From Takakia lepidozioides (taxonomy: Eukaryota; Plantae; Bryophyta): a stretch of 64,000 bases of DNA. The stretch lies in the NCBI GenBank assembly GCA_030704615.1, contig CM060734.1:5766001-5830000 (forward strand). The letters run 5' to 3'. Under the pieces are notes generated by a model that saw nothing but the letters and a program-made list of their open reading frames with translations, was not told where the DNA came from and searched no databases. Positions 25,200 to 53,083 of this stretch are shown here, in pieces; position 1 is the first letter of the stretch, and the number at the start of each line of letters is the position of its first letter. A program made the position numbers and the translations under genes.

Positions 25200-27020
25200 C
25201 TGACAGTGAAGGGGGTTTAGTTAGGGGAGGATCCAATCAGCCAACCAAAAGCATTTTGTTTTGTTGAAGCTTTCTTTGGCAAGCTTATGCACCTTCTAAA
25301 TGTCGCCTTCTGAGCTCTTTCTCCAGGTCTTTCTTGATAGATCGATTGGTACGAAGGGTTGTCTTAGAGTCATTCAGAGTTTCTTCCTCAATTCTGTCTT
25401 CTCCATCTTCCTTCTCAGCGACCTTGAAACATTCTCGCCTTATTGATTATCCCAGGGACATTGGTCTATCAAAGTCTTCCATGAAAGACTGACTGAAAGA
25501 CATCGTACCTGTGCAGGATGTTTCTCAATCTTGTCTTGTCCACCATTCCACTCCAGTCTGGCAAAGAAGCTGGCGCCATGTAAATTGTCTCTCAGGCATG
25601 AGGGACTTTGGGGCAGAGGAGAGACACATATGTCAGTTTTATCTTCCAAGGCTGTTGGGAATGAAGCTTCCTACTCAGGATGTTTGGTTGCTGCCTCTCT
25701 GAATCTTGGGCAATTCTGTAGGAATTCTCCAAGACAGTCCTGGAGGTTACAGTTGCTAGGGAACTTTCAGCTTTCTTCAGTGCTTGCTTTTCTTTTCATA
25801 GCCTCCTCCAACATACTACGGTTCGCTCCAGCCTGGATTTGAGTGAGGTCGCCTCGGTCTTGGGCTGGGCAGAAACCTTGCTTAAGACCCAAGCTGCCTT
25901 GGATAGCTGGGGGCCCAGTAGAGGCTTGGCCCAAATTTCCAGTTTTGCCTACTGCTGGCTCTTTTGGAAGAGGTTCGTAGCCCCTAATGCTACAGCTTCC
26001 AATGGCAACTTAGAAATATCTGCAAGCATGTGAATGTGTCGATAAGTTTCAGTACAAAGCTCTGTCACTAAGAGTTCTGAGACGTGACGTGACCTGAGCT
26101 CTGGAGTTGACGATGCAAAGTTATGTACTCATCTTTTCCCCTCGCAATAACCAGTTGACACAATACTTCAGCTTGAGGGCTGCCTCCTTAGACTGCCTAG
26201 GTGCACAAAGATTGCATGTAGCACGGGCATAAGATTGGACATAGTTTGAGGACCCTCTTTATCCTCTTCCAGTAATTTTTGGAAAACAGCCAAGCATTTT
26301 ACTAGATTCCTTTCCTTCAGAGCAATGGAGTCTGCCAACTGTTTGGAGAGCTTCTGGCATATCGATCTAGGCTCCCGCAGCTTTACCAAGAAGTGGTGAT
26401 TAGGAGAAACAAAACTCCAACCTGCAGACTCCCAGCAGGAGCTAATATCAGCAACCATTGTTGGGATTGATAAGAGACTGGGATTAAGCGTAACATAACC
26501 TCTTCCTTCAACTCTACGTCATGGATACCCAAGTTAAAGCCACCTCCAAGTGGTCAAATTCAGGAAAAGCAGGACCCATCGGCGATGAGCACGACCAAGG
26601 TAATAAAACTGAAGAGCAATAGATTTGGTCCAATCTAGTCATCCGTAGACCAGGGGGCGCTCGGTTATTGGACCACGAGAACTGAAAAAAAGATTCTGCT
26701 GACTAGGGATGGATGCATCCAAAAACCATACGGACAAACAAATGGCTTCCCAGGAGTACCGTTCTTCCAGGGAGAGTGTGTGATCTGCAAAACCTGAGTG
26801 ATCATCAGTCAACTGAATCATGTTGAAATCACCTGCCATCACCCAGTGGTCAATATTTTGACAAAATCTTAACTTTCAACAAGTCCCAAAGCTCAATTCC
26901 CTCTGCAGAAACATTGGGAGCATATTTATTAACTAAACCAACCAGCCCATTGGTGCCAAGAGAACACAAACATGCAAATTGGACTCTGCCTTGCACCCAG
27001 ACATCCACATTTGAGATAGA
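25200..27020 (-). mobile_element. Degenerate L1-like LINE ORF2 fragment (APE endonuclease region)
   Basis: APE motifs LVNKYAPN and WVMAGDFNMI at about 26810-26940, with many stops. Boundaries are approximate. Confidence 0.65.
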
Positions 27021-27143
27021 TCCAGTCAGGGAGGGGGGGGGGGGGGGCAAGATTGCAGTCCCTCCCTTGGCATCCACAAAAGTGCGATTCCACCACGCTG
27101 CTTGAAAAGGCCACATGGAGCCTCCTAATGCTGCGAATTTCGT

Positions 27144-27217
27144 GTGATGAAGGATTCATATACCCAGTAAAGACACCACAATGGTTATCACCCATTGTAA
27201 TAGTGCCCAAGAAAAAT
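27144..27217 (+). mobile_element. Short Ty3/Gypsy RT N-terminal fragment
   Basis: GFIYPVKTPQWLSPIVIVPKKN matches the Gypsy GxIxP...W.SP.V.VPKK motif. Confidence 0.6.
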
Positions 27218-29856
27218 TACAGAGATAGACCCACTCAAAATACCACACCATGCCACGACAGACCCCAACCTCCACCCACCCCATACAACAATATGCCAGA
27301 TACCCCTACCCATCTCCAAATAACCCCAGCAACGTCCTCCCCAATCTGCCCGCACAACCCTGAAAACCCCAATGCCTTCATCATAGAAGCTATTCTTGGA
27401 ATTAAAACCCAAACGTCAGTAGACCCCTTCGAAGCCACTTGTGTGGATACATTTTATTACTGTAAATGGGCTGGTTACCCACCAGACAATAACACATGGC
27501 AAATTGAAGACGACCTCTTTGGCCCACACAATGATTGCGACCCTGACCACAATCTCACCCTCCTGACCACCTTCCACAAACGCACCAACACCAATTACCT
27601 GACTCACATTCATCAACAACACACTTCCCCCGCACAACCCGAAGACAACCGATACATACATAACCCGTTAATTGCCCCTAACATACACATATGCACGACC
27701 GAATGTCACCCTGATAAAGACATAGATCATGACTCCCCAATGATCCGTATAGGCCCCCGCCTCTCCAATATCTACGCTCAAAACGGCCGTTTTATTGGTC
27801 TTATCCCCAATGACAGGCTAACATGGCTTTGGGAAAAATATTCCACCACAAACACTAATTCACAAATCTTACAACCTCCCAAACAAGACTTTGCCACCGA
27901 ATTATGCTCGCTCACAGAACGCTACCTCAAAGATGTCCCCCCCAACAAACCACGTATCCTTAGCAGACTAGCAATGGCATGCGCTCATAACACTATACCC
28001 AAGGACATTCTAGCACTACTCATCCATTCCTTCCAACTTACTCACTCATATTACTCCAGCCTGCTCACATGTCCTATGGAATTCACTACATTTGCAAGTC
28101 CATACCACGGAGATTGTATCTTCGGAGCCACGGGTACTGCCACTCAACACACCTGGGCTGGCAGAGGCCTTGCTCACCCTCCCCCTGGAACCTCCACTCA
28201 TGAAGCTCTCCAATGGGCACGCTTCACTGCTCATTCCTCCCCCCACGCCCTCACCATACTCATACTCACCCAACAACAATCACCCAATGACTCCCACCCT
28301 CTCCTACGCCTCCCGCCAGGGGTTAATTTACTAGCCACAATCGAACCCAACCAGCTTAAATATGTGCATACCCCACCCCTTCCCAAATACCTTAGACAAA
28401 GGGAACCCACCCTAACCCTAATTTTGCATGTCCAACACTCCTCCCCCATCAATATACCGATACCCTTTTTGAGCCACTTCAAACAACTGCTAACCCTGAC
28501 GCACAAAATAAAGGCTATCACCCTCCACCCTCCACCCATCGTTCATCCACCACCTCCTATGACTCTGCACCAACCATTTCATTTCCCAAAATTAAACCAA
28601 ACAAAGCTTGGGAAAGGGCGCTGCCGCGCCCCCCCCCAGGCTACCACACCAATATCCACACCCCCTATTCCCTCACTATACCGACAAACTATCCCCCTCA
28701 GATACCCCCCATCTAACTCCCATTATACTGACGGATCCCTCACTAAACCAAATGCTGGCTACAGAGTATATCATGCCGCCACTAACCAAGGCACTGCCCT
28801 CCGACTTCCTGGCCCTGCCACCATATTACGAGCTGAACTTATGGCCATCTTCGCCCTGCTAGATGCATTCCCTCCTCCATACTTCATCTTCACAGATCTC
28901 CGTACCTCACTCTTTTTTATCTGAAACCACATATCCCGCCCCTCCTCCCACCATCACCACCTAGACCGCAACCTCATTACAGCCATTGTTAACCTCGTTA
29001 TTTCCAAAAGCCACCCTATCCACCTCCTCAAAGTTTGTTCGCACACTGGCATTAAAGGTAATGAGGCTGCGGATCTACTTGCTCAGACAGACACCTCTAA
29101 ACCCCCAGTGGACCTTACAGATGACCCTATTCACATTGCTCATACCCACCCATTTTGGTTCATACACCCAGTCCCAGACCCCCCCCCGCACCCAAACCAA
29201 TCCGTAATCTTATGACCACTATCACCCGTGAAACGAACAAACAAGCTGCAACATCTATTAGCCACAACAAATTCCACATTAAAAAATGGACCCAGTCCAC
29301 AGTCCTCCACCATAAGCTATCAAACCACTTCTGGCACACCAAAGCCACTACCGATGCAGAAATCCGACAAACACTCAAATTGAGGTACGCCCAATACAGG
29401 GACCACCAACGTAAACACATCTTCTGGCCACATCTTTTCCCATCTCCATATTGCCCACTATGCTCAAATACCCACCATGAACGTGACACCTGGCCACACC
29501 TCCTTAGCCAATGTACCCATCCAATCATTCGTGGCCTTCATATCACTCGTCACAACCACGCAGTTTGGCACATCCATAAACTCCTTCTGAGCCACACTGA
29601 AACTAGGTGGTTCTCACTCATTAACGCCGGCACCTACCAAGGCCGACCACCAAACCACATTGTACCACCGTGGCTGCTCCCATATACATGTACCCATTCA
29701 CCATGCACCTGCCCCGCCAGACTCTGCCATGATATTCTCCTTGTCAAATGCCTCCCACTAACACCCCACCACCCACTACACCATCCCCACAAATCACCAT
29801 CCACTTCATCGAATTTACATATTGTAATGATCGCTACCCCAATGATTCGATCTTGG
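27218..29856 (+). mobile_element. 3' part of a non-LTR retrotransposon (Dualen/RandI-like): chromodomain, PCIF1-like MTase-like region, RNase H, CCHC finger, restriction-like endonuclease
   Basis: Chromodomain FIIEAILG...YYCKWAGYPPDNNTWQIEDDL (27377-27520). RNase H HYTDGS / RAELMAI / IFTD / SHTGIKGNEAAD (about 28720-29080). Finger CPLC..DTWPHLLSQC followed by RHN. Endonuclease RLCHDILLV...IHFIEFTYCND. Frameshifts are present and RT is missing. Confidence 0.75.
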
Positions 29857-30996
29857 AAGAATTTGGGATCCTGGAAGGAAGTGTTTTTGAGTGTAAGGAC
29901 TTCAAGTCCTGCTTAATATATAAGCATATGACAACATATCCCACAATACATCCGCAGAAGGTGATTTGTTTGCGAGGACGCAAACAGATGAGTGTGGGAG
30001 TATGTCATGTATTCATGTATGTAATGGTGAAGAAGCTTGAGGGGATGTAGTGCATAAGAAAAATAGAGTGATTCTACAGGAGGATATAGTTTGAAATAGG
30101 AGTGGGGCTCTTTATTAGTTTCTTCTAAAGTTATTATCAGCAATTTTTATTTTTTTTATCTTAAAGAAAATGGTGGAGACATTATGATGAAGGAAGAAGA
30201 CATGTTCATGGCTGAGAAACTTGTGATTGTCAAGACGATGAAGTGGAAGAACCACCTGCCAAGAAGATTATGACTTAGTTTTTTCTTAAGAGATGGTGTT
30301 TGCGGAGGCGCTGCACAACTAGGAGTAGGGCTATGTAGAATAATAGAAAATTCTTTGTGGAGTAGCATTTAGAATTGGAGTGCAAATGAACAAGAATTGG
30401 ATGTGAAATTGCACTATGGGGTTCGATAATTTGATAGAATTGGGTAGGATGATAGAACGGAAGTAAATTCAGATAATGGGGATGATAATTGGTAGGAATG
30501 GGGTTATTATGATAGATGTTAGCCCATTGAATCAGTGCTAGGTAGTTATGGTAGTTAGAGTAGGACACTATGAGTTCAGCTGAACTGATGTATTCATGGT
30601 CATTCGAGCGAGAGTGTTGAGGCCCTAGCACATGAGATGCTAGTTTGTCGTTTACAATAGTTTAAGTAAAAGATAAGAAAAATATGAGTAGTGTGATGAG
30701 ACAAAGATATGATGAAAGACTCTGTAAGCTTCATGTTAATGTGATGAGATGTTGGAGTTTAATGGGAAGAATTTTGTGTGAAAGAAAAAGATGAGGATTA
30801 TTTAATGAAGTGTGCAGATCAATATGAGAGGAATTTAATTGAGATGAATATTAAGACATTTATTGTTGGGAGCCAATTAGAAGTAGATATAGTGTTCTAA
30901 TCGCGACATAACAATTCAATTGTGTGCTTTCCCTGCGAACGAACCTTAGAACTAATTAATCCTTTTCTTTAGGATTGATTATAGTTTTATCCTACA
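29857..30996 (+). repeat. LTR-like direct repeat, copy 1, of an AT-rich (Athila-like?) element that hosts the DNMT retrotransposon
   Basis: Near-identical to 42643-43761. It ends ...tatcctaCA and is followed by tctttttgacgccgc, which resembles the Athila-type tttggcgccg PBS. Confidence 0.75.
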
Positions 30997-31052: not shown

Positions 31053-32242
31053 TGTCGTGCGCATACATATCGCTACACAACTACATCGTTGTCCAAAACC
31101 ACACAACACATGTGCACACCACACACTTGTATATCACTAATCCACCACTAGTGCAGCCACTAGGCTATAACTAGTCAGTCACTAGGCTGCCACTATGTTG
31201 CCCACTATGACAGTCACTAGTCCACACAATGATAAAGAAGAAGAATACAAGCATGAGCTCACAAATCTGAAGCATAAACTCATGCATATATAACCTCATC
31301 ACTCAAATACAAGTCAAGCCAAGTGCACCCCACACCATGGGGAATCCACACTACGGCGCCATAGCTAGACATGGTGAGGCTCAACTCGAGAAAGATGAGC
31401 CTCCCGCGCTTGCCATGAAGATAACCACTCCAGGGCCTAAATCTGCCTTGACCCCTGGATTGACACTTGGGCCAATCCAAATGTCAATATGTAAAAGCTA
31501 GCTATTTCCTAGCTAGTTTAACACTTGTGGTAAAATAACTTGACAGATGTCGTGCGCATACATATCGTTACACAACTACATCGCTGTCCAAACCCACACA
31601 ACACATGTGCACACCACACACTAGTATATCACTAGTCCACCACTAGTGCAGCCACTAGTCCAACCACTAGGCTACAACTAGCCAGTCACTAGGCTGCCAT
31701 TATGTTGCCCACTATGGCAGTCACTAGTCCACACAATGATAAAGAAGAAGAATACAAGCACGAGCTCACAAATCTGAAGCATAAATTCATGCATATATAA
31801 TCTCATCACTCAAATACAAGTCAAGCCAAGTGCACCCCACACCATGGGGAATCCACACTACGACGCCGTAGCTAGGCGCGGTGAGGCTCAACTCGAGAAA
31901 GATGAGCCTCCCGCGCTTGCCGTGAAGATAACCACTCCAGGGCCTAAATCTGCCTTGACCCCTGGATTGATACTTGGGCCAATCCAAATGTCAATATGTA
32001 AAAGCTAGCTATTTCCTAGCTAGTTTCACACTAGTGGTAAAATAACTTGACAGCTGTCATGCGCATACATATCGCTACACAACTACATCGCTGTCCAAAA
32101 CCACACAACACATGTGCACACCACACACTAGTATATCACTAGTCTACCACTAGTGCAGCCACTAGTCCAACCACTAGGCTACAACTAGTCAGTCACTAGG
32201 CTGCCATTATGTTGCCCACTATGGCAGTCATTAGTCCACACA
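31053..32242 (-). repeat. 3' terminal tandem repeat block Y-X-Y-X-Y: Y 32055-32242, X 31737-32052, Y 31548-31735, X 31230-31545, Y 31053-31228
   Basis: X is 316 bp in both copies and matches 40750-41065. Y is 188 bp (176 bp in the outer copy). Junctions on the + strand are TGACA-gc-TGTCA and TGACA-ga-TGTCG. Confidence 0.93.
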
Positions 32243-32502
32243 ATCGCCCCCCTAGCTGGTGCTTAGGTCCCTCTAAGTCCGGATAGCCACAAGATGTGAT
32301 AGTGACCATAGCCTCATTAAATCCTCCACCACTGTCCCTACTACACTCAAACTCGATAGATCAAGAGGCCGGGTGCAAGAGTCGCCCCATCGTTAGTCGC
32401 CGTCTTGCAACCTGTGAACTTGAGCCTGGGATCTCGTGTATTGACTCTTATGAGCTTGGCCTCCCATGTCTTGTTAGCTGCCTCTAGTCATGTCCACTGC
32501 CA

Positions 32503-34008
32503 CTATCCCAAGCAGTGTGGATATAACCAATCTCCATCAGGAACCCTCTCAAGAGGTGGTGTCAAGCATCCCATATGCCAACCTCTTGAGCATCGATCAC
32601 ACACCAGCATGGTGGCTGCCCCTTTGGCAGACCCACAGAGCATGCACCTCAAACCTGCAGGTACCACTGCCAAGTTTGGGTCAACTCTGCCATCGACATT
32701 GGGAATGTGACATGGCGCACAATTACGTACATGGTCTTTCCAAGTCATGCCATCCCGACCCTCCAAGATCAGGACTCCTGAGGGCAACACCTCTCGAATC
32801 CTTAGAATAACACGCCCTGCAGTGACATCTAGGGTCGTAGGAGCAGTCTGCTGCAAATAAACATAGTCACCAGGGCTAAACCTCCGAACCCCAGGACGAT
32901 ATCCTCCACCGCGTATAGTGGCATACCTCAAAGTATCACAATGTTGTGCAATGGCAAGGTTCTCAAAAGCCATGGGCATGATTTTCTTGAACAACTCTGC
33001 ACGCTGACCACATGCACGTACCCACACGTCTGGATCGTCAAGGTTAAGGACTTGAGCAGTGTCTCTACGAATGGCTGCAGGCAAATCCGGCTCTCGGCCA
33101 AAGAGAAAGAAATATGGTGAGAAGGAGGCAAGTGATGCTTGCTTGCTAAACCTGTAGCCCATGGCTAACCAAGGTACCTGAAGATCCCAATCTCCTAGGT
33201 GTCCCTTCTGCAAGCCGTACTTGCGTAAACCCCTCTTCACCGTCTGAACAACTATCTCTGCCAAGCCATCGGCCTCAGGATGATCCCAAGAAGTGGTGCG
33301 GTGGTCTATCAAGGCTTTATCACACAAAGTCTGAAACTCCCCCAAGAACTCTCTCCCTTGGTCCGCGAGTACCTCAGCTGGAGCACCGAATCGGCTAAGC
33401 GCACGATCCAAGAATGCATACGCAGCCCCCTCACTAGCCTTGTTAGGCAATGGAACCAACTCAATCCACTTGGAGAAGTGCTCCACCATCACCAACACAT
33501 ATATGTGGTGGCGCATAGTCAGTGGCAACGGTCCTGCGAAGTCAAGACTCCACCTGTAGCCCAATCCCATGATTAGTAAAGGATGCAACTGTGGTGTAGG
33601 GGCGTTGAATGAAGCACGCACCCTGTCACACACCATGCACCTAGCCACGAACTGTTGCACCTCTGTATGCATACCACGCCACCAATACTGCCCCTGCAGT
33701 AAACTGTGAGTGCGTCGCACTCCAAAATGCCCCAACTCCTCATGGGCATGCCGCACTAATCGTGCACGCTGTATGGGGTGAGGCACAATCCTCACCTGAC
33801 CATCCTCCCACACTCGAAGTAGGTGTATCCCCTCCCACTTGAACCTCTGGGCTCGTTGCAGGATCCGATCTCTCTCCCTAGCAGTCACAGCGGCTGCTGT
33901 GTCTCCCGTGCGGAGGTAGTCCAACACAGCCAAATCCTCATGTATATCTCTGGCACCACCTGGCTCATCACTAGCCTCAGGGTCCTCAGACACTCCGTCT
34001 ACAATCAT
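32503..34008 (-). CDS. Integrase (HHCC + DDE) with C-terminal PHD finger
   Basis: HEELGHFG...CMVC; WSLDFAGP, ADQGREF, DGLAE. PHD finger CMLC...VCDRCSRGWHMGCLTPPLERVPDGDWLYPHC, with the penultimate Cys replaced by Tyr. Confidence 0.93.
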   Translation of the reverse strand: MIVDGVSEDPEASDEPGGARDIHEDLAVLDYLRTGDTAAAVTARERDRILQRAQRFKWEGIHLLRVWEDGQVRIVPHPIQRARLVRHAHEELGHFGVRRTHSLLQGQYWWRGMHTEVQQFVARCMVCDRVRASFNAPTPQLHPLLIMGLGYRWSLDFAGPLPLTMRHHIYVLVMVEHFSKWIELVPLPNKASEGAAYAFLDRALSRFGAPAEVLADQGREFLGEFQTLCDKALIDHRTTSWDHPEADGLAEIVVQTVKRGLRKYGLQKGHLGDWDLQVPWLAMGYRFSKQASLASFSPYFFLFGREPDLPAAIRRDTAQVLNLDDPDVWVRACGQRAELFKKIMPMAFENLAIAQHCDTLRYATIRGGGYRPGVRRFSPGDYVYLQQTAPTTLDVTAGRVILRIREVLPSGVLILEGRDGMTWKDHVRNCAPCHIPNVDGRVDPNLAVVPAGLRCMLCGSAKGAATMLVCDRCSRGWHMGCLTPPLERVPDGDWLYPHCLG

Positions 34009-34026
34009 CCATGTTGTAGGTTCAAC

Positions 34027-35478
34027 CTAACCTCCCGATGGCAAGATACACAAAAATACAGATGCGTGCCATCCCGGCACCATCTCCTCGTCCGTCTCAC
34101 CATGCCACCGAGCTCCAGTGTCATCCTGTTGGCTCGTGCATGGATTGCGACTCAATCCATCCACATCCCGATTGACCAAACCCGGTCGATGCACAACCTG
34201 AAAGTCATACTCCTGAAGTATGAGTGCCCACCGTGCAAGCTTCCCCGTAAGCTTGTCTGACTCCATCAACCACTTGAGTGGCTGGTGATCCGTGACAAGG
34301 ATGAAAAGATTGTCGTATAGATAGCACCTGAAGTGTGCCACGGCCCACACTGCAGCTAAGCACTCTCCCTCATATGAGCTGTAGTTAGCCTCTGCAGCGT
34401 TGTTCAAGCGACTAGCATAAGCCACTACGAACTCTCTTCCCTCATCATCCACCTGTGTGAGCACCGCTCCAAGCCCCAGCATGCTCCAATCCGTATGCAG
34501 CTGAAAGGGACGCCCCCTGATAGGTCGTCTTAGGATAGACGCCGAGGTCAACCTCGCCTTGAGCTCTTGAAAAGTTCGTTCCTGCTCATCTTCCCACTGC
34601 CACTCCTGGTCCACCTTGGTCAGCTTGGTTAGAGCCTTTGCAATGGTACTAAATCCCTTGACAAACCGTCTATAATAGTATGCCAACCCCATGAAAGCTC
34701 GAACTCGGCTCACATCCGTGGGGCGTGGAATTTGTGCAATGGCATCTACCTTAGTCTGCTGTACCCCCAATCCTCCAGGATATATCATGTGACCCAGATA
34801 CTCAATCTGGTTGTGGAAAAACTTGCACTTCCCCGGATGCAACTTCAATCTGTGCGCTCTCAAGCGCTCCAATACCACCTGAAGGTGTCTCTCATGCTCC
34901 TCCACCGTAACACTAAAGATGATGATGTCATCTATGTAGCACCGAGCAAAGTCCACCCCTGTTAGAATCCTATCCATGACTCTTTGAAACTCTGCAGGAG
35001 CATTCTTAAGCCCAAATGGTAAGAACCGCCACTGATATAGGCAATCATTGCCGTGCTCATTGATCCCCCAGAATGCCGTCTTCTGCTTGTCCGCCTCCTT
35101 GATTGGCAACTGGTGATATCCGGATCGTAAATCCAAAGTGCTAAAGACCTTAGCATGCCCGATGGCATCAAAGATCTCCTCTGGTGTTGGCATGGCATAC
35201 TTATCGGACTTGGTTTGACGATTTACAGGCCGGTAATCACCGCACATACATCTCTCCGTCCAATTGCCATAGACATCCTTCTTGGCTAGCATCACTGTGG
35301 CTGAAGCATACTCTCCACCAGAGAGCTCCACCAAACCTGCCTCCCAGAGATCTTGAGTCCTCATCTGAATCAAAGACCTCTCCATGTCACTGTATCTATA
35401 GGGTCTCCGAAAGATTGGCATGTCAATGGCCAACTCAATACGGATCTCTTGACCCTTCAGTGCTCCCAAGTCCTTCAA
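34027..35478 (-). CDS. Ty3/Gypsy reverse transcriptase + RNase H
   Basis: CGDYRPVN, LDLRSGYHQ, LPFGLKNAP, YIDDII; RNase H motifs HTDWS, EGECLA, TDHQPL, DGLSR. Confidence 0.96.
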   Translation of the reverse strand: MKDLGALKGQEIRIELAIDMPIFRRPYRYSDMERSLIQMRTQDLWEAGLVELSGGEYASATVMLAKKDVYGNWTERCMCGDYRPVNRQTKSDKYAMPTPEEIFDAIGHAKVFSTLDLRSGYHQLPIKEADKQKTAFWGINEHGNDCLYQWRFLPFGLKNAPAEFQRVMDRILTGVDFARCYIDDIIIFSVTVEEHERHLQVVLERLRAHRLKLHPGKCKFFHNQIEYLGHMIYPGGLGVQQTKVDAIAQIPRPTDVSRVRAFMGLAYYYRRFVKGFSTIAKALTKLTKVDQEWQWEDEQERTFQELKARLTSASILRRPIRGRPFQLHTDWSMLGLGAVLTQVDDEGREFVVAYASRLNNAAEANYSSYEGECLAAVWAVAHFRCYLYDNLFILVTDHQPLKWLMESDKLTGKLARWALILQEYDFQVVHRPGLVNRDVDGLSRNPCTSQQDDTGARWHGETDEEMVPGWHASVFLCILPSGG

Positions 35479-35939
35479 ACTGCAGGCAAAGCAATTCCTG
35501 TAAGCCCTCAGGAACCGCCGTATACGTCGTCTCTCTCCTCCGGTGACAATGGGTCCAATGTCAGGCTCCCAATTGTCCTCTGTAACTGCAACCTTAAGTC
35601 CAGTGGGCTTAGAGGTAGAGGACTCGTCCAGTGGTTACTATGTTGCAACCTCTTGAGCAGTACTCCCTACCTGCTCAGTCAGTGACGAGGCCTCATCCTA
35701 CCCCATCATCTCATCCTCAAGGACTTCCTCCACCCGAGAAAAATCTCCAACCTCATCTATCACCGCCACCTTGGCTGCCAACTCCCTCTGAACCTCGAGC
35801 ACCTCCCACGTGTGCCATGGATGCCTGCACCCCGTGGTCCTCACATGCTCGCCCCCACTCACTGCCTGTACCATCTCGGTAGGCAGAGAGACCATCGAGG
35901 GAAGTGTACTCCGCACTCTGCGTTGCTCAGCCATAGCCA

Positions 35940-36900
35940 AGCTGATAATCCAGGTCAAGCAATTGAGATCCATTGCTTGCCCCAACCCCTGACGACGTGA
36001 TGCCTCAGAAAAAGACGACACCGCCGTGGTACCAGTGGTAAAACCCATTGCCCGCTCACGCTTGTCAGCATTAGGCTCCACTAACTGCTACAATTGAGCA
36101 TCCCACAGGAGGCCAGGTCCACTATCCCGGAAAGCATGCGATCCTGGGAAGCTGAGCAGTGTAGGTAATGCTGCTCGTGGTTGACCCACCTTGTTGACCA
36201 CTGCCAAAGGCAAACGGTCATCGTGTCTTACATGCTGAGACTGCGTCCCTGTCTCCAGAATGTTATCCACTATGAGATGTGCTGGCCGCTGCACCCCATC
36301 AAATGCACGCTTGAGCAGTGCGGGTGGCATCAAGTTAGTCCATCATAGCCGTGGACGATGAGCCCGTGACCCCACTGTAGCTGCATCTAGCAACACTGCT
36401 GACCCAAGCCACGACTGGACTTGATGCACACTGGCCATCACCCTAGCCCGAGAATCGCCCATCAGTGGCACATTCTCCAAGATGTATACTAGAAATACAG
36501 CCTGATGAAGCTGCAAGTGGCGCAAAACCCGCACCATCTCCCAAAACAGACCCGACCTCGAGTCTCGCAATCCATTGCCATGCCCGGCTGATGAATGCCC
36601 TTGGCAGGGCCAACCCACTACCAGATCAATGGAGCCAACCCGCTCCAAATCCTGCGCCCCCAGCAACGAAATGTCTGCTGGCAAGGCCTGCTGATATCCA
36701 CGAACTGTAGACACCGGCAACAACTTAGGGTACCGCTGCACCAACTGAGCAATATGGCGAAGTGAAACGCGTTGTGCAGTCTCATCCTCTCCACATACAG
36801 GTAACGCCGAACTCGTATACCTGCCTGTAAGACAGCAGCCAATCCGGTGCTGATCCCGCCAAACAAGTCCAGAAGACAAATGCCTTCATTTGGATACTGC
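35940..36900 (-). pseudogene. C5-cytosine DNA methyltransferase domain within pol (one frameshift, two premature stops)
   Basis: Motif I LLDLFGGISTGL (about 36840-36880); II YLYVE; IV DLVVGWPCQG (PCQ at 36601-36609); V DSRSGLF; VI ILENV (ENV at 36469-36477); VIII AHRPRL; IX RERAMGF; X LGQAMD. All are in canonical order. Confidence 0.92.
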
Positions 36901-37280
36901 CACACAATAGGTGTGGTGTCCAATGGAGACAACTGAGGTGGTCCTGGTGCAATCCCCGCACTCTCCTCCTCTCCTGACGTTACAAAAGCCTCCACCCAGG
37001 CTTGTTGCATCCGTCGATCAGCATCCCGCTGCAAATCCTTGCTCGTGCCCCACAATGGAGTCTGAGCAACCATGGTAGGCAACTCCGCCATACCATACAT
37101 GTCATCCTGCTCTCCCGGAGGTGGCACATCCTCTGAATGAGCGTTGCCCTCAAGCAACTCTCCAGGCCAATTCACTGCCGCTGTGAATGCTGCTAGTGTC
37201 GATATCTTGCCTCGCTGGGCAACCGCAACTCCTCCTATGAACGTCACATTGAGCTGCACACGCCGGCCCTTCCCTGACTG

Positions 37281-37733
37281 TCATCCAGGCCTATAGGAAG
37301 CTGACTCCTCCCAAAAATCTAGGGTAAAGCCCATGGGGTACAACATTGCCCAACCAACCAGGACATCGTACGAGACCGCGTCTGTCACAATGGCCTTGGC
37401 TCGCATCACTGAGCCATCTGTAGGGTGATCCGGCCATAGTCTGATAGCCAACTCACGCCGTGTCATGCCCCGAGCCTGCTCTGATCCTCCCAAAGATGTC
37501 TGTATCTGGAAAAGACAAGGCTCCATATCCGCCTTCGTGAGGCCCAAGCCTGCAATATCAGCTCTGCCCAACATCAATGGCTGAGCTCCCGAGTCCAACG
37601 AGACCCGCAGTGGCCGGTACCTCTTGCCTGCCGGTCCACTCAAACAGAAAATGTCATCCTGGTTGTCTAACATGACAACTCCAGGTGTCACCATGGCGCG
37701 CTCAATGGCTGGCCTAGCTGGCAGCTCCATCAA
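37281..37733 (-). CDS. Retropepsin-type aspartic protease
   Basis: VSLDSGA catalytic motif and YDVLVG C-terminal motif. Confidence 0.85.
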   Translation of the reverse strand: MMELPARPAIERAMVTPGVVMLDNQDDIFCLSGPAGKRYRPLRVSLDSGAQPLMLGRADIAGLGLTKADMEPCLFQIQTSLGGSEQARGMTRRELAIRLWPDHPTDGSVMRAKAIVTDAVSYDVLVGWAMLYPMGFTLDFWEESASYRPG

Positions 37734-38372
37734 CCTGGCAGTTGCAGCTTGCTATGGCGCCGCCGTGGCAGTCTTGACCCTCAAATCCGAGGATCCCTCC
37801 GGCACTACACCTCCCATTATCTCTGCAGAAGATGAAGTAATATCCCCACTCTCACAGAGTGTAGCTGTCAGCCTGAACACCTCAGCTGGTCTTACCTCCG
37901 GCGTCGCAATCATGGTAGCCGAGAACAATGGAGCCTGGCACACAGATGTGGCCACTCTTAGCAGCACACTAGCTGCCGTAGCCTTGGCAACACTAGGTAG
38001 TGGTGCTACCCGTGTAGCTCTCCCCAATGGCATAGTAACCTCCGCCTCGGTAACAGTCGGGCAAGAACTAGGTGCCATGGATGGCGTCGACATTGTCTCC
38101 GCCAATGTAAATGACTAAGGAAGCCTAGCCTGACGGCTTGCCTCCCCACACTGTGGATCCAACTCCACCTCTGCACCTCGTGGCTCAGGAACTCGTGTTG
38201 CTCCTCGAGTCACGGCTGCAACAGACTCCACCTGCACTAGTGGTAGTGCTGCTCCGCACATGAATCCCATGCCTCCCATATCTCCTCCCTCAGGAGCAGG
38301 AGGTGGACCATCCGGCCTTGGAGCCGGTACCACCTGAGCTATAGCCATGGCAGCGAGCTTCTGCTCTAGCTG

Positions 38373-38690
38373 CTAAAGCCAGTTGGCCAAGCCTTGGTCA
38401 ATACCCTGACCTCCGTGTCCTTGGCCATGTTGAGCTTGCCCTTGGCCTACACCCCGTGCCTGGCCACCTCGTCCTCTTTGGGCTGTTCCCCCTCGCCCCC
38501 GGCTACCATTGTTCCCTTGGAACTGACCTGGGCGCAACTCGGGATGCAAACCATAACATTGGGCCTCTCCATGCCCGTGCTTGCCACAATGCCTACACTG
38601 CAATTGTGCAGGCTGTGCATATACCAGCCCTTGGCCTCCCTTTGGACAATCCTTCTTGACGTGGGGTCCTCCACATGTCCAACACACCAC
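38373..38690 (-). CDS. Gag C-terminal zinc knuckles and RG-rich segment (upstream capsid region not found)
   Basis: CWTCGGPHVKKDC and CRHCGKHGHGEAQC, followed by RGRGG repeats. Confidence 0.75.
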   Translation of the reverse strand: MVCWTCGGPHVKKDCPKGGQGLVYAQPAQLQCRHCGKHGHGEAQCYGLHPELRPGQFQGNNGSRGRGGTAQRGRGGQARGVGQGQAQHGQGHGGQGIDQGLANWL

Positions 38691-38778
38691 ATCCGCCCGT
38701 TGTTGGCCTGCAAATGAAGGGAGAGACCCCTACATCTGAGGTCCTCTCTGCCCTTCCCTGAGCTTCACTTGAGCCCCC

Positions 38779-39210
38779 CACAGCCCGTTACAGCCCCACA
38801 GGCCACAGGGCACAGCCTGACACAGCCCGTCACAGCCCCACAGGCCACAGGGCACAGCCTGACACAGCCCGTCACAGCCCCACAGGCCACAGGGCACAGC
38901 CTGACACAGCCCGCCACGGCCTGTCACAGCCCCTCACAGCCCCTCACAGACCCACAGGCCATAGGGCACAGCCTGTCACAGCCTGTCACAGCCCTACACA
39001 GGTCACAGCCCCAAAGGCCACAGCCTGTCACAGCCCATCAGAGCCCTACACAGGTCAGAGGGGTCATAGCCCCAAAGGCCACAACCTGTCATAGCCTGTC
39101 ACAGCCCGTCACAGCCCCATAGGCCACAGGGCACAGCCCCTCACAGGCCCTCACAGCCCTACATAGGTCACAGGGGTCACAGCCACAGCCTATCACAGCC
39201 CCTCACAGCC
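38779..39210. repeat. 42-bp minisatellite in the leader of the DNMT element
   Basis: Three near-perfect copies of cacagcccgtcacagccccacaggccacagggcacagcctga (38779-38904), then degenerate copies. Confidence 0.9.
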
Positions 39211-40733
39211 CATCCATGGCCACTCATGGCAGTTTAGCCATTTCTCCAAGGGGTTTAGCCACGCCACGCTAGGGTTTGTGTCTCTTGGACTCTAGGCTTC
39301 TTTGCACCGAGCTATGGCGGCTGTGAAGAAAACAACAAGGTATTCTTGTTCTTTCGGCTCCCACACACCACCAATAGTAGCCCTAAGCCATGAGGAAGAT
39401 GGTTGCCACAAACCAAGCATTCTTTCTCACTTAGACTCCCCAAACACGCCACTAAACTCAATGGCAAACAACCAAGCCTTGCTGGTTTGTAGCCCTGGTG
39501 AGCACTGATTCAAGCGTTTCCCTTGGCCATAGCATCTGTCTTAGAGCCTATTCCATCCCCCTACACCTGCCACTTCAAGAGCCATGCTCTATCTAGGCTT
39601 GAGGTTGAAACCCCAACTCAGAACACGCTCTACAAGTGTCGGACTGTCACATAAGAGCAGATCAGCCCCTTACCTTCTCTTCTAATTCTCTAAAGCTTGA
39701 AAACAAAAGCCCAATGGACTGAAGGCATGCTCCACACATGCCCCACTCTCACCAACAGAGAATCAGCCCCTTTGCTTTCTTTCTTGCACCCACCAACCTG
39801 AAAATACACGCTTCAGCGGGCTGGAAGCATGCTCCACACCCTACAGGGAAACCAGCCCCTTCCTTCATTTCTTGCACTCCCAAACCTGAAAGTACAAGCC
39901 TTCATCAAGCTGAAAGCATGCTCCACACATGCATTGCTCTCACATAAGGGAAGTCAGCCCTTCCCTCTTCCTTGCTTGTCCTCCAAGCTTGAAGATGGAA
40001 GCTTCAATGAGCTGAATACATGCTCCACACATGCAACCTCTTCACATAAGAGGTATCAGCCCCCTATCTTGGCTCCTTAGCTCCTTGATGGTCTCTAAGA
40101 CAAGACTAAGCACTCCACAGCCCTTGCCAAGCTACTAAAACCCTAAGGCTTACATTTCCAGCCACAAGACACTCCTCTTGTGGTGCAAGAGCTCTTCTTC
40201 CAAGCTCTGAAACCCTAGGTGCACATTCCATGGCCTTGCCGCACCTCTTAGCTCCTGTTCCAGCCCTGCTCTTGCCATGACAAGAGCCCTCTCAATGCTG
40301 AAGCCCGAGATTGAAACCCAATCTCAACATACTCCTCAAAGTGCACTGATTTGCCCCAAGCCAAATCAGCCCTTTCGCTTGGTCTTGCAATCCTTCACAC
40401 AATGAAAGTTCGCATTCCCAAGTCCAGTTCTCAGCTTTGCCACCAAAGCCACTATAACCTGCTCTTGACTGGTCCTCTTCTCAATCGTGCTTGTTCATGC
40501 ATGTACACAATCTGAAACCATCAAGGTGCTCTGGAATTACCTGCAGCATGGTGCTTTCATCTCTGAAGTTGAAGATCGAATGCCAAGGTCTACCACCTCG
40601 TAACCCACATCGCCTCCGCTTCTAGCAACCAAGAGCTCCACGGTGCTCCTTGCATAACAACCTGGTTTCTCTCATTCTCAAGCAAAAACCACAAGTGCTA
40701 CAACTAACTCGTATCTGGCACTGACAGATATGA

Positions 40734-40750
40734 GCTCATCTTTCTCGAGT
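40734..40750 (-). promoter_or_regulatory. Putative self-priming primer-binding site
   Basis: gctcatctttctcgagt (40734-40750) is the exact reverse complement of actcgagaaagatgagc (40904-40920) inside the adjacent repeat X. There is no TGG start as in a tRNA-type PBS. Confidence 0.65.
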
Positions 40751-41065
40751 GATAAAGAAGAAGAATACAAGCACGAGCTCACAAATCTGAAGCATAAACT
40801 CATGCATATATAACCTCATCACTCAAATACAAGTCAAGCCAAGTGCACCCCACGCCATGGGGAATCCACACTACGGCGCCATAGGTAGGCGCGGTGAGGC
40901 TCAACTCGAGAAAGATGAGCCTCCCGCGCTTGCCGTGAAGATAACCACTCCAGGGCCTAAATCTGCCTTGACCCCTGGATTGACACTTGGGCCATCCCAA
41001 ATGTCAATATATAAAAGCTAGCTATTTTCTAGCTAGTTTCACACTAGTGGTAAAATAATTTGACA
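40750..41065 (-). repeat. 5' terminal repeat X of the DNMT element
   Basis: 316 bp, TG...CA, near-identical to 31230-31545 and 31737-32052. Confidence 0.93.
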
Positions 41066-41229
41066 AAATAAACGTTGGATCAAAAGAGAAACTGAATTAT
41101 GAAGCTTGTGAGGTTAGGGCTTTGAAAAAAAAAAATTTGTCGGGGATTTTGTGTTTTTAGACTTTTGTTTTTCTATGGTTTCAATTTTTTAATTTTCTTG
41201 GATGTGAAACAATTACATACCTATTCGAG

Positions 41230-42560
41230 ATGGAGCAATTTGTTCCTACAACCCCTAGGGAAGCATATCTTTATAATTATTATGTGAACTTTCAGAGTGT
41301 GAATCGTGATCTGACTGTTCAATTGAATTTGGCTCAAACGAGGAATTTGGAAGAGATCCGGGCAAAAGATCTTGAAGCTGAAGCTTTGCTACAAAGAAAT
41401 GATGAGCATTTTCAAAGTGAGATTTCGACCTTGAAGGCAAAGTTAGATACAATCTCAATCGAGAAGGAGAAATTATTACTGGATAATGAAATTTTGCAAG
41501 AAGAAAATCAACTCTTATACATGAAGGTGCAATTTCTGGATGATCAAGTTGCCACTCTTTTATCAGAGAAAGTAAGTTTTGAGCAAGATAATGCAATGGC
41601 TATTCAACAATGTAAAGAAATTGCCTTGGAGGTCGTGCAAATAAGGGACCAATTCACTCAGTTGAGAAATTTGGAAGATAACACAATTTTTGAGGCAAAG
41701 CTAAATTCTTGCAATTATCAAAAATCGCAAATTTATTTGGAGGAGATCAATTTGGACGTGTGTTCAAATTTTGATACATTGAAGGTCATTGAGGAAAACT
41801 CAAGTTGGAATGGTGATTGTGACAAATTGCTTCAATTTTGTGCTTACAAACAACAATGCAAGTGTATTACCATGGAGGTGATGATATTTTCATTTCTTTT
41901 GAAATTGATACAATTGTGAAAGTCATGACCACAAAGAAGACCAAGAAAATGGTTAATAATTATCCCATGATTGAAGAACAATTGGACCTTTTGGATGGAT
42001 ATGAGGCCAATACTGCCAAAGTGATGATAGTGAATAATTTACAACCAATTGATCTATCTAAGAGCATCATTGATTGTGAAGGACTATGTGTTATAAATCA
42101 GCCAAAAAAGTTGGAAGCTGATTTTTTCCAACAGACTTTCATTATGAGACTTTTTCCAAGAGATTCTAATTTTTTTTTACAGATAGTATTTCAATTTGGG
42201 AAATTGAGAACCAAGATAATTTGGACAATTATAAAGTTTCAATGGGAAATCAAGATTTTGGTGGACTATCCGAGTCTATTGTATGCACAATTGGTGAAGC
42301 AACCCGATCCATCGATTGGGCAATTGAAGAAAGAGCTTAGCTGTTTTCATGTATGCGGTACATTTCAAATTTCGAATAATGATCAACAAAAAGTTCACAG
42401 TTTTGGATTAGCTGTGATGATACAATCAACAAATGGTGATGCGGTCTTCTCTGAAAACAATTGGATTCCTAGTCTACAAGATCATGAATTGCCTCGGAGT
42501 TCATCTCAACAGTTAAGAAAGAGCTTGGTGCTAAACATTCATTCGATACTATATCACTAA
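41230..42560 (+). pseudogene. Coiled-coil ORF(s) of the AT-rich host LTR element
   Basis: Overlapping ORFs 41230-41919 (E/L/Q-rich heptads) and 41838-42560 lie between the two 1.1-kb direct repeats. No enzymatic motif was recognised. Confidence 0.4.
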
Positions 42561-42642: not shown

Positions 42643-43761
42643 AAGAATTTGGGATCCTGGAAGGAAGTGTTTCTGAGTGTAAGGACTTCAAGTCGTGCTT
42701 AATATATAAGCATAGGACACCATATCCCACAATACATCCGCAGAAGGTGATTTGTTTGCGAGGACGCAAACAGATGAGTGTGGGAGTATGTCATGTATTC
42801 ATGTATTGTGAAGAAGCTTGAGGGGATGTAATGCATAAGAAAAATAGAGTGATTCTACAGGAGGATATAGTTTGAAATAGGAGTGGGGCTCTTTATTAGT
42901 TTCTTCTGAAGTTATTATCAACAAATTTTATTTTTTAATCTTAAAGAAAATGGTGGAGACATTATGATGAAGGAAGAAGACATGTTCATGGCTGAGAAAC
43001 TTGTGATTGTCAAGACGATGAAGTGGAGGAACCACCTGCCAAGAAGATTATGACTTAGATTTTTCTTAAGAGATAGTGTTTGCGGGGGTGCTGCACAACT
43101 AGGAGTAAGGCTATGTAGAATAATAGAAAATTCTTTGTGGAGTAGCATTTAGAATTGAAGTGCAAATGAACAAGAATTGGATGTGAAATTGCACTATGGG
43201 GTTCGATAATTTGATAGAATTGGGTAGGATGATAGAACGGAAGTAAATTCAGATAATGAGGATGATAATTGGTAGGAATGAGGTTATTAGGATAGATGTC
43301 AGCCCATTGAATCAGTGCTAGGTAGTTATGGTAGTTAGAGTAGGACACTATGAGTTCAGCTGAACTGATGTATTCATGGTCATTCGAGCGAGAGTGCCGA
43401 GGCCCTAGCACATAAGATGCTAGTTTGTCGTTTTCAGTAGCTTAAGTAAGAGATAAGAAGAATATGAGTAGTGTGATGAGACAAAGATTTATTGAAAGAT
43501 TCTGTAAGCTTCATGTTAATGTGATGAGATGTTGAAGTTTAATGGGAAGAATTTTGTGTGAAAGAAAAAGATGAGGATTATTTGATGAAGTGTGCAGATC
43601 AATATGAGAGGAATTTAATTGAGATGAATATTAAGACATTTATTGTTGGGAGACAATTAGAAGTAGATATAGTGTTCTAATCGCGACATAGCAATTCAAT
43701 TGTGTGCTTTCCCTGCGAACGAACCTTAGAACTAATTAATCCTTTTCTTTAGGATTGATTA
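42643..43761 (+). repeat. LTR-like direct repeat, copy 2, truncated just before the LTR end
   Basis: Near-identical to 29857-30981. Confidence 0.85.
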
Positions 43762-46109
43762 GAACTGGTTCTTCACAACATGAAGGACACTGTTGAGAAG
43801 GCTAAGGCACGTTATGGGTACTTTTGCTGCCTTGGTTGATTCTTACAAGACCAGGATGGAAAGTTACAACGACAGGTGAAGGCATTCCAATGCAAAGAGG
43901 AGCAAGAACTGAGAAGTTATACTCGTCAGCAGGTCGATGATCACATTCTTCAGCTATGGTTGAACGGCGAGCCGGTGGATGGCAAGGTACCTCGCAAATT
44001 GACTAGGGAAGAAATCATTTCCAACAGCAAGTGCAGGCCATTGCCACCAATACTATTGACGGAGTCTATAGTACAATACCTGATTTGCAGGAAGACATAG
44101 ACACTGTTCAGATTCAAGTGGATGAATTAATCTCTGGCATGGAGAAGCGGCAACAATTGGAGGTCAACGAGGCAAAGCTATACAGGTCTTGGATACAGTG
44201 GCTATAGTATCACACTCACCCAAGGTATCACATGTGGACTTGAGCACTCCAGTGCCAGACACTCAGCTTGCTGTCTGGAATGAACCCTTTGTTCCACCAC
44301 AGACTTTTGCTCAACAGGCCTATAATGATGTTGTACTTCTACCTCTTCGGCAGATTCCCCAAGTCATGGAAATGGCTTGAAAACATTTCACACATGTGCA
44401 GTCATTGGGGCAATATTACCACATCATGCGTCATTGGTTGCCATTGGCAACAAGGCACAGAGTTTTTGATGCGAACACACAGTTGTAGGATCACGCCTTT
44501 GCTTAGTGCTCGCACGGTGCAAGTGACATGATGAAGGAGTTGCTGGCATTCCAAGTTATTCATGGTCTGGTGTCGACCAAAACCAAAGAGACAGCCAACA
44601 TTGTCATGAGATGTGGTACTTACTATGCAGCCTGTTTTCTTCTCAGATACCAAATCGAGCGACAAACAATGCATCAGAGGTATCTCTCTTTTCCCAATGG
44701 ACCTCAATGGCAACTGCCTTTGCCTCCCCAGTTTACATATCATGATGTCAGGCTCATGCTCCAGCATGACACACAGCTCCGGTCTTGGTTTCAAACGGCT
44801 CAAGATCACCTGAGACAGATTCTCTGGGATCATAATCATCTTTTTCTTAAGGGGCAGATGGCTAGGCAATGGCTTGAGACCTCCAAGCATCTCCACAAAC
44901 CACCCAATTACACGGAGTGTGCACTGCGCACATATACTGCTCTGGCTAGGAAGAAAGTAGACAGAGCTTGTCTTGACAATGTTCCAGACATGGTAGGCAT
45001 TGATGGGATGCCAATGGACCTATTAGTTCAGCACAGGAGCCAGAAGGGCCAGCATAATGCGAAGGAACCCCATGTCTCGAGTTCGTCCAGTAAAGATGTG
45101 TTGGACATGGCGGAGCAGTATGAACAGGTCATGGGTGACAGAGCAAGGAGGAGTTCTCCCATTCCTGAAGGGCTTCCCAACTATATTAGGCCAGGACAAT
45201 CAGCTCCAATCAGCAGACAGCCATCTCCGCCACGGACCGATGCAGTTCGGGCTAAAACTCTAAGCCCTTGTACCGAATCTCGTCCACGAAAATGTGCCTG
45301 TTCACCAAGGTATGAAGACCCCACACATTAACCGTGAGGGCACGGCTTTTTTGGAGGAGGGATAATGTTATAGGGCTGTCTGGGACTTAGGCAGAATTGG
45401 GGTTTTTGTGGGTACCCCTAAATTTTGCGCAGCTGTGGTGCTTCATGACTGTGTGATCACAGCCCGACACAGGTCACAGGTCACAGGCGCTGTTACCACA
45501 GACGGGGAACAGGAGGCGGGAACACCACCAGCAGGGACACAATATAGTTACGAGCTAATTGGCGGTTAGAGGCACGGTTAGACAGTTATAGCTTGCAGGT
45601 GAAGAGCCAGCGGAAGGAGGGGGAACGGATCACTTCTTGGATCGCTTCTGGCATTAGGGGGAGAGTACGATCTTGGAGCATAGAGATGGAGAGTACACAG
45701 AGGAAGAGATGATCTGATGTTGTTTGATACATGCAAGCTGTAGAGATGTACTGTAGGGCAGAATAGAGACACCATGGCTTTGGCCTGATACTTGATAGAT
45801 ATTAATATGATTCATATTTCATATATACACTGTGTAGAGAGAACTGAGTGAAGCTGTGGAATGAATGCTTAAGTAGATGGAACATGGTAGATTGCAGAAG
45901 CAATCTGATACTTAAGCCTAGGCAGTAAGGGAACTTACTAAACATGAATGCAAGAAGGAATAGATATAGGAAAGCACCCCCATGATACACTAGCTGTAGG
46001 TCATGACTGTTTGTTCTGAGCGGGAGGAGTACTTAGAGATATCCAACTCTTCTATCTGGAGTTTCCACCTCAGATAGCTAAGGGATGGGTGAGTAAAAGC
46101 CGCTCAACA
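43762..46109 (+). mobile_element. 3' end of another LTR element: unknown ORF 44528-45331, PPT and LTR about 45366-46109
   Basis: ccgtgagggcacgg...ggaggagggataa is followed by TGTTA at 45366, a typical Gypsy 3' end. The candidate LTR end is ...CAACA at 46109. No partner LTR is present. Confidence 0.55.
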
Positions 46110-46146
46110 TCCATGTGTTTCATTTTTCCTTAGCAGTGGCGCCTCG

Positions 46147-53078: not shown

Positions 53079-53083
53079 CCTCG

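Follow-up and report, generated by a model that had tools for sequence, protein, structure and literature searches.

The DNA analysed here, hereafter the window, is a stretch of 64,000 nucleotides from the bryophyte Takakia lepidozioides (assembly GCA_030704615.1, contig CM060734.1, positions 5,766,001 to 5,830,000 of the forward strand). Its minus strand carries a Ty3/Gypsy retrotransposon (31053-41065) in which a C5 cytosine DNA methyltransferase (DNMT) domain precedes the reverse transcriptase (RT) and a PHD finger lies at the C-terminus of the integrase; the coding order is Gag remnant, protease and DNMT3-like domain, followed by RT, RNase H, integrase and PHD finger (Table 1). A sequence-only reading had proposed a Gypsy element with both modules within 32503-38690; the whole element extends past that span, and profile searches bear out both assignments. 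Pfam PF00145 matches at 36346-36885 (E 1.2e-10, 41.8 bits against a curated cut-off of 22) and PF00628 matches the PHD finger (E 2.3e-8, 34.4 bits; cut-off 24), with RT and RNase H matches within 34030-35634 and integrase and PHD matches within 32506-34026, all above curated cut-offs.

Table 1. Features of the retrotransposon, in window positions.
Feature	Position	Strand	Remarks
Whole element	31053-41065	-	Termini TGTCA...CGACA; flanks alike at 3/4 bases, a degenerate 4-bp target duplication
5′ terminal repeat A1, 316 bp	40750-41065	-	No B before A1
Predicted self-primer, 17 nt within A	40904-40920	-	Exact complement of the sequence directly downstream of A1
Predicted primer-binding site	40734-40750	-	Pairs with a stretch inside A; not a tRNA test
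5′ leader tandem repeats	38779-39928		10/42/52-bp and 89-bp units
Two CCHC zinc knuckles, Gag remnant	38556-38684	-	From the translation; no Pfam match on the decayed stretch
Aspartic protease	37275-37682	-	DSG at 37584-37598; PF13650 E 2e-4 on unbroken relative L030
DNMT3-like C5 cytosine methyltransferase domain	35938-36881	-	Unrearranged motif order
Family-conserved stop	35638-35640	-	Ends the Gag-protease-DNMT frame; RT next in the same frame
Reverse transcriptase and RNase H	34153-35571	-	YIDD at 34927-34938
DDE integrase with HHCC zinc finger	32704-33951	-	Private-looking stop upstream at 34027
PHD finger, integrase C-terminus	32506-32652	-	Seventh cysteine lost in the window copy
Polypurine tract	32244-32253	-	Directly before B1
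Repeat B1	32055-32243	-	
B-A junction	32048-32059		Palindrome TGACA-GC-TGTCA: two element ends abutting, 2-nt spacer
A2 (31737-32052) joined directly to B2 (31548-31736)	31548-32052	-	
Extra unit A3 (31230-31545) and B3 (31053-31229)	31053-31545	-	Past the second B-A junction, 31541-31552

The window copy is dead and multiply broken, more so than the sequence-only reading had reported. That reading named one frameshift and stops such as those at 36343 and 36088 as the damage. The copy is indeed disabled, with the frameshift in the DNMT at about 36786-36789, and at the stops 36343, 36088, 35698 and 35635 other copies in four public runs differ, which marks these stops as private decay; the damage is larger, however, comprising ten further in-frame stops within 34027-38732, a one-codon gap in motif IV of the methyltransferase, the loss of a PHD cysteine and the absence of the Gag N-terminus. 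For residues 1-271 of Gag from a Marchantia relative, no match was detectable in the window copy; coding similarity starts abruptly at 38777, so that the N-terminal part has probably been deleted, and other copies show loose ends at 38778. In the four runs every part of the element, the DNMT too, is spanned by contigs, tens of them at each position, and the element therefore belongs to a multi-copy family in this organism. One independent contig departs from the window sequence exactly at 41065 and runs on into another flank.

Differences were called private where at least about 90% of the depth departs from the window copy, among 80 rows listed and after overlaps and one flank row were dropped. 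Of the 47 listed in this way, 35 are of the C-to-T type, in agreement with the C-to-T decay suggested earlier; they fall in CG (10), CHG (9) and CHH (16) contexts, against backgrounds of 12, 18 and 70%. CpG is depleted (observed/expected 0.35-0.70). Neither the CpG content nor the decay context tells self-methylation from methylation by the host.

Methyltransferase, PHD finger and the intervening stop

The C5 methyltransferase motifs, numbered by the standard scheme, lie in order between protease and RT as had been noted from the sequence: on the minus strand, motif I at 36843-36872 (in the upstream frame), IV at 36598-36627, VI at 36469-36486, VIII at 36346-36360, IX at 36040-36057 and X at 35965-35985. 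The domain is intronless and Dnmt3-related, its motifs are unrearranged and its catalytic residues are present. When compared with solved structures, a profile of the family matched DNMT3A, DNMT3B and DNMT3C with E values of 6e-18 to 6e-14, HaeIII with 1.7e-7 and a DRM enzyme with 7e-7. The predicted structure of an unbroken family domain has a pLDDT (predicted local distance difference test) of 96.3, and its Foldseek neighbours are DNMT3 in all 29 rows listed (template modelling score 0.67-0.75 by query). A search aimed at host DNMT3 and DRM proteins returned only element proteins, and the DNMT3 assignment therefore rests on the solved structures; profile and model together indicate a methyltransferase of DNMT3 type.

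The catalytic cysteine, the motif VI glutamate and a motif VIII arginine are invariant across 48 aligned domains, and the S-adenosylmethionine-binding motif I is retained in 85 of 93 domains. Motif IV reads GWPC in 53/93 and GWEC in 26/93, and one Pleodorina copy lacks the PC motif. The pooled ratio of nonsynonymous to synonymous substitution (dN/dS) for the DNMT is 0.10 in an unbroken clade (three sequences, three pairs), 0.49 among decayed close loci (RT 0.41) and 0.37 among distant loci (RT 0.32), the values in the decayed groups all being raised because of mutation after insertion. These ratios, which span 0.10-0.49, point to purifying selection that constrains the DNMT about as strongly as RT, and away from the neutral evolution considered in the sequence-only reading.

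The best solved relatives of the PHD finger are CHD4, PHD1 of KDM5A/B, ATXR5, PHF21A, BAZ2 and UHRF1. None of 63 complete family PHD fingers has an aromatic residue two before the third cysteine, the cage position, and the lack of an aromatic residue there is a mark of readers of unmethylated K4. On account of the structures of these relatives and of the missing cage residue, the finger is predicted to bind histone H3 tails unmethylated at K4 (H3K4me0), i.e. away from active promoters. Its dN/dS is 0.05 (one pair), 0.23, and 0.90 (eight short, decayed sequences), and constraint is less clear than for the DNMT.

The description of the methyltransferase as lying in pol does not hold for the window's clade. 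DNMT and RT share one frame, with a stop between them in the linker: in 29/30 close loci with both domains, a linker stop is followed by a CAR-YY-N-like hexamer, mostly at a fixed distance from RT. The hexamer is CAACCC in 24 loci, exactly CARYYA (CAGTTA or CAATCA) in three and a one-letter variant in two; CARYYA is the readthrough hexamer of tobacco mosaic virus (PMC4132726). In the window's own family the stop is covered and no other letter appears among the rows listed, a missing row being no proof, and other copies fit CARYYA after it. In locus L030 two unbroken frames, 1369 and 1047 codons long, meet at the conserved stop; five of nine Marchantia proteins from the first open reading frame (ORF1) end 71-82 amino acids past the DNMT domain, and ORF2-only proteins of 1033-1083 amino acids exist, one of them from a Coleochaete transcriptome. 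As the stop is a family feature and not decay, the DNMT ends ORF1 and stands outside an uninterrupted pol; in this clade it forms the C-terminal end of Gag-protease, and its output would exceed that of RT and integrase. The stop-hexamer motif is absent from the distant loci (0/30), and eight folds of the sequence 3′ of the stop revealed no RNA structure in common.

Family, distribution and ends

A search with the DNMT region returned 59 homologous proteins, the best from the liverwort Marchantia polymorpha (63-70% identity), with Sphagnum fallax also represented; the closest named relatives are thus liverwort and moss proteins, in line with the earlier impression of a land-plant-like genome. 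Further relatives bear the source names Calypogeia fissa, Klebsormidium nitens, Closterium, Coleochaete scutata, Tetraselmis striata, Pleodorina starrii and Haematococcus, and no seed-plant protein occurs among the DNMT-bearing matches. Metagenome loci (L numbers) are the best 80 of 311 confirmed matches, and those long enough all read Gag-PR-DNMT-RT-RH-INT-PHD (PR, protease; RH, RNase H; INT, integrase). Among 177 proteins two orders are found, with the DNMT either before RT (streptophyte names and Tetraselmis) or between RNase H and integrase, the latter, RT-RH-DNMT-INT-PHD, in 29 complete proteins and with Pleodorina and Haematococcus among the sources. In a large green-plant clade, DNMT and PHD finger usually occur together; the earlier picture of a writer-plus-reader element in a land-plant genome is right as to the pairing, but the pairing is not unique to this genome.

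Proteins P0034-P0056 and P0137-P0175, which have the order RT-RH-DNMT-INT-PHD, form a supported RT clade with Pleodorina and Haematococcus, the DNMT having moved within pol. Many proteins of this order are mislabelled as bacterial transposases in metagenomes, and one cluster is labelled cyanobacterial.

Phylogenies were built as quick trees with approximate likelihood-ratio support (SH-aLRT) and with FastTree, and their deep forks are weak. In the RT trees the DNMT/PHD proteins are separated from the rows of chromoviruses and of animal Gypsy elements (SH-aLRT 98 at a 35-row fork of the quick tree; also FastTree), and the rows nearest to the window are Marchantia and L004 (97). Protein P0133, named K. 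nitens and reading PR-DNMT-RT-RH-INT, falls within the window's RT clade (quick tree, SH-aLRT 89 at a 22-row fork and 98 at a 32-row fork) and shares one DNMT clade with it (FastTree 1.0). We take P0133, from its name and domains, to be the charophyte element KnitGypsy-Dnmt3 described in 2018; the relation of the window element to the latter, to which the sequence-only reading had pointed, is supported. In an RT-only tree, a long branch close to the group's base carries two probable Tat RTs. RT and DNMT distances are correlated (Spearman 0.635, 57 proteins, 0/999 permutations). The pattern fits one old capture followed by one relocation; with the deep forks weak, transfer between hosts may also have contributed.

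Two further proteins lie at the margin of this family. P0150 is a Gypsy protein just outside the clade that reads PR-RT-RH-PHD-INT and has a match to Dam adenine methylase (PF05869), possibly a DAM-LTR (LTR, long terminal repeat) with a PHD finger. P0225 combines a family-like DNMT domain with a GAG-pre-integrase match (PF13976) and may be a Copia-type element or a chimera.

The element has no ordinary LTR pair in the window, where it reads A-coding-B-A-B-A-B; the general architecture is A-coding-(B-A)n-B, with n of 0 and 1 in relatives and 2 here. The three A copies of the window are equally diverged (3.8-4.4%). None of 26 5′ ends shows B ahead of A, all beginning with TGTCATG, and the A-B joins are precise in 10/11 junctions. 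Because B starts directly after the polypurine tract and A stops directly before the primer site, B+A corresponds to the repeat made by reverse transcription; the element nonetheless starts with A and finishes with B. The internal B-A junction consists of both termini abutted around two bases and is palindromic in the window. Among nine elements with both ends, 4-bp target duplications are perfect in six.

The sequence after A pairs with position 145-167 of A through 12-21 Watson-Crick pairs in 8/8 elements, with different sequences in three subfamilies, so that the primer site is complementary to the predicted 5′ end of the element RNA (a Tf1-type arrangement). The pairing score lies clearly above the best of 12 control windows in seven of the eight and marginally above it in one, the duplex has a fold z of -5.6, and a TATA-like box stands 20-35 nt upstream of the primer stretch in 5/8. 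The simplest reading would be a self-primed cDNA, bounded on either side by B+A, that is circularised and opened by integrase at the B-A palindrome; circles of one, two and three repeat units would give the forms with n of 0, 1 and 2.

A copy at L015:8523-17162 reads A-coding-B and is flanked by a perfect duplication of 4 bp; at six other 3′ ends, too, the element stops after B1. Such copies are either one-repeat circles or products of B-B recombination.

Outer direct repeats of 1.1 kb (29857-30981 and 42643-43761, 96% alike) surround the element. They were considered as its LTRs and rejected: they are without TG/CA ends, and the element's own termini lie inside them. Between these repeats are two AT-rich frames, 41161-41919 (coiled-coil-like) and 41823-42560, with no convincing Pfam match. 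Elsewhere in the window, 27020-29916 on the plus strand is a 5′-truncated non-LTR-like fragment with a chromodomain (PF00385, E 2e-6) and RNase H (PF00075, E 9e-11), in which RT was not found; its C-terminal cysteine/RHN/PD-E-like stretch, which has no Pfam match, resembles a restriction-like endonuclease. Other decayed Ty3/Gypsy copies with paired repeats lie at 46100-53100, 4800-10400 and 53500-54700, and the RT at 49831-50667 is placed among chromovirus rows and is followed by a Tf2-like SH3 domain. The only host gene seen is an exon of a mitochondrial carrier gene (21552-22130, plus strand; PF00153, E 3e-19).

Proposed replication cycle and its alternatives

We favour, with moderate confidence, an account in which this Ty3/Gypsy family carries a DNMT3 in the Gag frame and a PHD finger in pol, the DNMT being likely packaged with Gag and likely methylating the element's own cDNA, which would be integrated from a circle. 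Transcription would begin inside A, and the first RNA bases would fold back onto the site after A, priming reverse transcription without a tRNA. Most ribosomes would halt after the DNMT, a minority reading through into RT-RNase H-integrase-PHD; the methyltransferase would likely be packaged in many copies with Gag and likely act on the cDNA of the element. Reverse transcription would place B+A repeats on both cDNA ends and the cDNA would close into a circle; integrase would then open it at an internal TGACA-NN-TGTCA palindrome, the form A-coding-(B-A)n-B would be inserted and flanked by a duplication of 4 bp, and the PHD finger would likely tether the complex to nucleosomes with unmethylated H3K4.

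Several observations weigh against this account. Regarding translation, the commonest hexamer, CAACCC, differs from exact CARYYA, and the stop is TAA in about a third of close loci; DNMT and RT lie in one open frame in 14/30 distant loci and 38 proteins (some of the latter being gene models over broken copies), and Gag-level dosage is therefore not universal. Three members, P0162, P0168 and P0169, have no room for a DNMT and Closterium-like members are without the PHD finger, which makes accessories of both modules. Several loci represent one insertion assembled twice (L018/L020, L033/L035, L046/L047 and L049/L050), and as all loci were retrieved with DNMT patterns they allow no count of DNMT-less copies. 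At the ends, two of the nine elements match at three of four duplication bases and one has no duplication, the window's A is without a TATA at the expected distance, and B-B recombination can also yield short and long forms, for which reason the circle is one that we infer. Host methylation accounts equally well for the CpG depletion. The GWEC form of motif IV and a negative assay in yeast, both taken up below, likewise count against methylation by the element.

The last two points would also fit a DNMT3 fold that transfers few or no methyl groups and has been retained to bind or shield DNA, either on the cDNA circle or in the particle, an explanation that we take seriously but consider unlikely. 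The Klebsormidium Gypsy enzyme gave no methylation in yeast (PMC5890265), a negative from which the study drew no firm conclusion, motif IV departs from GWPC in the GWEC domains and in the Pleodorina copy without PC, and dosage at the level of Gag would suit a structural job. Human DNMT3B, however, failed in the same yeast assay (PMC5890265), and the invariance of the catalytic cysteine, glutamate and arginine, together with the widely retained motif I, speaks against this explanation.

Distinctly unlikely, in our view, is an active enzyme whose target is the chromatin of the host, be it at the insertion site, at neighbouring genes or on competing elements, and which is guided there with the integrase by the PHD finger. 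The chlorophyte-type order of the 29 complete RT-RH-DNMT-INT-PHD proteins, which puts the DNMT beside integrase and PHD finger, would suit such a role, and in DNMT3A, similarly, the catalytic domain is accompanied by an ADD domain that reads H3K4me0. In the window's clade, in contrast, writer and reader are in different frames, parted by the stop and by protease sites, and DNMT and PHD finger have each been lost independently.

It is improbable that the same parts are used by another route, with pol expressed from a spliced or internal transcript and the ends formed by template switching on linear cDNA. The gag-pol stop of Candida Tca2, whose bypass was questioned (PMC2194720), speaks for it, and the precise A-B joins fit a templated join as well as a clean ligation; against this, the stop keeps the same frame, distance and CAR-YY context across diverged subfamilies, and a B-A palindrome spaced by 2 nt provides what staggered cutting after CA on the two strands would require. 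Finally, the idea that a fragment of a host or bacterial methyltransferase was captured just once, in the window copy, or that the assembly is chimeric, with the domain evolving neutrally, can be dismissed as already refuted in spite of the heavy decay of this copy: the same order and position recur in dozens of loci and in named genomes, other copies in the four public runs cover DNMT and RT alike, and dN/dS is well below 1.

A more far-reaching form of the favoured account is possible, although we incline to doubt it as a whole. The elements would constitute a Ty3 clade of ancient origin and so far without a name, shared by all green plants but seed plants, that has kept its captured DNMT3 since before the chlorophyte-streptophyte split; a leaky stop would dose the enzyme so as to load each particle, and a self-primed, methylated circle would be integrated by a retroviral-type integrase steered by an H3K4me0 reader. 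LTR-finders would miss such a clade because it has no LTR pair.

The case for Gypsy-borne DNMTs has so far consisted of one alga and a negative yeast assay; the lineage is now seen in liverworts and mosses, and many annotated proteins of Marchantia polymorpha belong to it. As host methylation mutants exist in that species, the role of a retrotransposon DNMT becomes testable in a land plant. The capture would date not from one charophyte but, likely, from the base of green plants, unless transfer occurred repeatedly, and members of the lineage are liable to be mis-annotated as ‘host DNMT3’ genes in bryophytes. The split repeats account for the fact that a paired-LTR survey (PMC6317226) would miss the clade and that it recovered no non-chromoviruses in algae. 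A DDE integrase that uses an abutted-end circle would, if true, be unusual for LTR elements.

Comparison with known systems

The PHD finger occupies the position at which chromoviruses carry a chromodomain, as the sequence-only reading remarked, but the likeness goes no further: the window element has no PF00385 match, and its RT lies outside the clade formed by a Haematococcus chromodomain element and angiosperm rows. Tf1/sushi and Tcn1 elements share a primer site complementary to their own repeat instead of to a tRNA; by their description they are chromoviruses with ordinary LTR pairs (PMC6317226), whereas a PHD finger, a DNMT and split repeats are present here. Phygy, a non-chromovirus of moss in REXdb, has paired LTRs and an NCGN target (PMC6317226); on these features it differs from the present family, with its split repeats and NCGN in 0/6 perfect duplications. 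SymbioDIRS-Dnmt3 and the DIRS/PAT/Ngaro elements share the A-coding-B-A-B repeats, and SymbioDIRS-Dnmt3 also a Dnmt3 domain, but DIRS/PAT/Ngaro use a tyrosine recombinase and leave no target duplication, in contrast to the DDE integrase and the 4-bp duplications observed here.

The EpiLTRs and DAM-LTRs of a recent preprint (bioRxiv 10.64898/2026.05.21.726589) likewise join a DNA methyltransferase and a chromatin reader in an LTR element. Theirs, in Cymbomonas and Euglena, are DAM and a DNMT4-related enzyme with a chromodomain, a combination absent from the window element, and the preprint sets them apart from the streptophyte Gypsy-DNMT3. PHD fingers are known and widespread in retrotransposons such as REM1 of Chlamydomonas and CR1-like LINEs (cited in PMC6673714); in the present family the finger is instead fused to the integrase C-terminus of a DNMT3-bearing clade. 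The text of the Ceratopteris genome paper (PMC9477723) holds nothing on such an element, and in the open-access literature searched (subscription papers, Repbase and the 2018 figure panels apart) we found no description of the family in land plants or chlorophytes, or of its PHD finger or stop.

The closest known system is KnitGypsy-Dnmt3 (de Mendoza 2018; PMC5890265), the capture of which was assigned to the K. nitens lineage and described as Klebsormidium-only. Both have the Gypsy pol order RT-RNase H-integrase, an intronless, unrearranged Dnmt3-like domain under purifying selection, and A-coding-B-A-B repeats, which a figure legend of that paper calls DIRS-like and to which the window element adds one extra A-B. 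The DIRS Dnmt3 enzymes of the same study methylated CG de novo in yeast. Nowhere does the text of that paper mention a PHD finger, which its Fig. 4c or Supplementary Figs 13-14 may nevertheless show; in the sections consulted, target duplications, self-priming and readthrough do not come up either. The two differ in range, one K. nitens lineage against bryophytes, other charophytes and chlorophytes, and in frame: DNMT and RT lie in one ORF in KnitGypsy-Dnmt3, as seen in P0133 and in the distant loci with an open frame, whereas a conserved stop follows the DNMT in the window's clade. Since DNMT and RT thus occupy separate ORFs, the window element represents a variant of the KnitGypsy-Dnmt3 lineage and not the same family. 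It is best placed as the land-plant-type branch of that lineage and, relative to the literature searched, its combination of a PHD finger, a readthrough-type stop, apparent self-priming and circle-type ends appears to be new.

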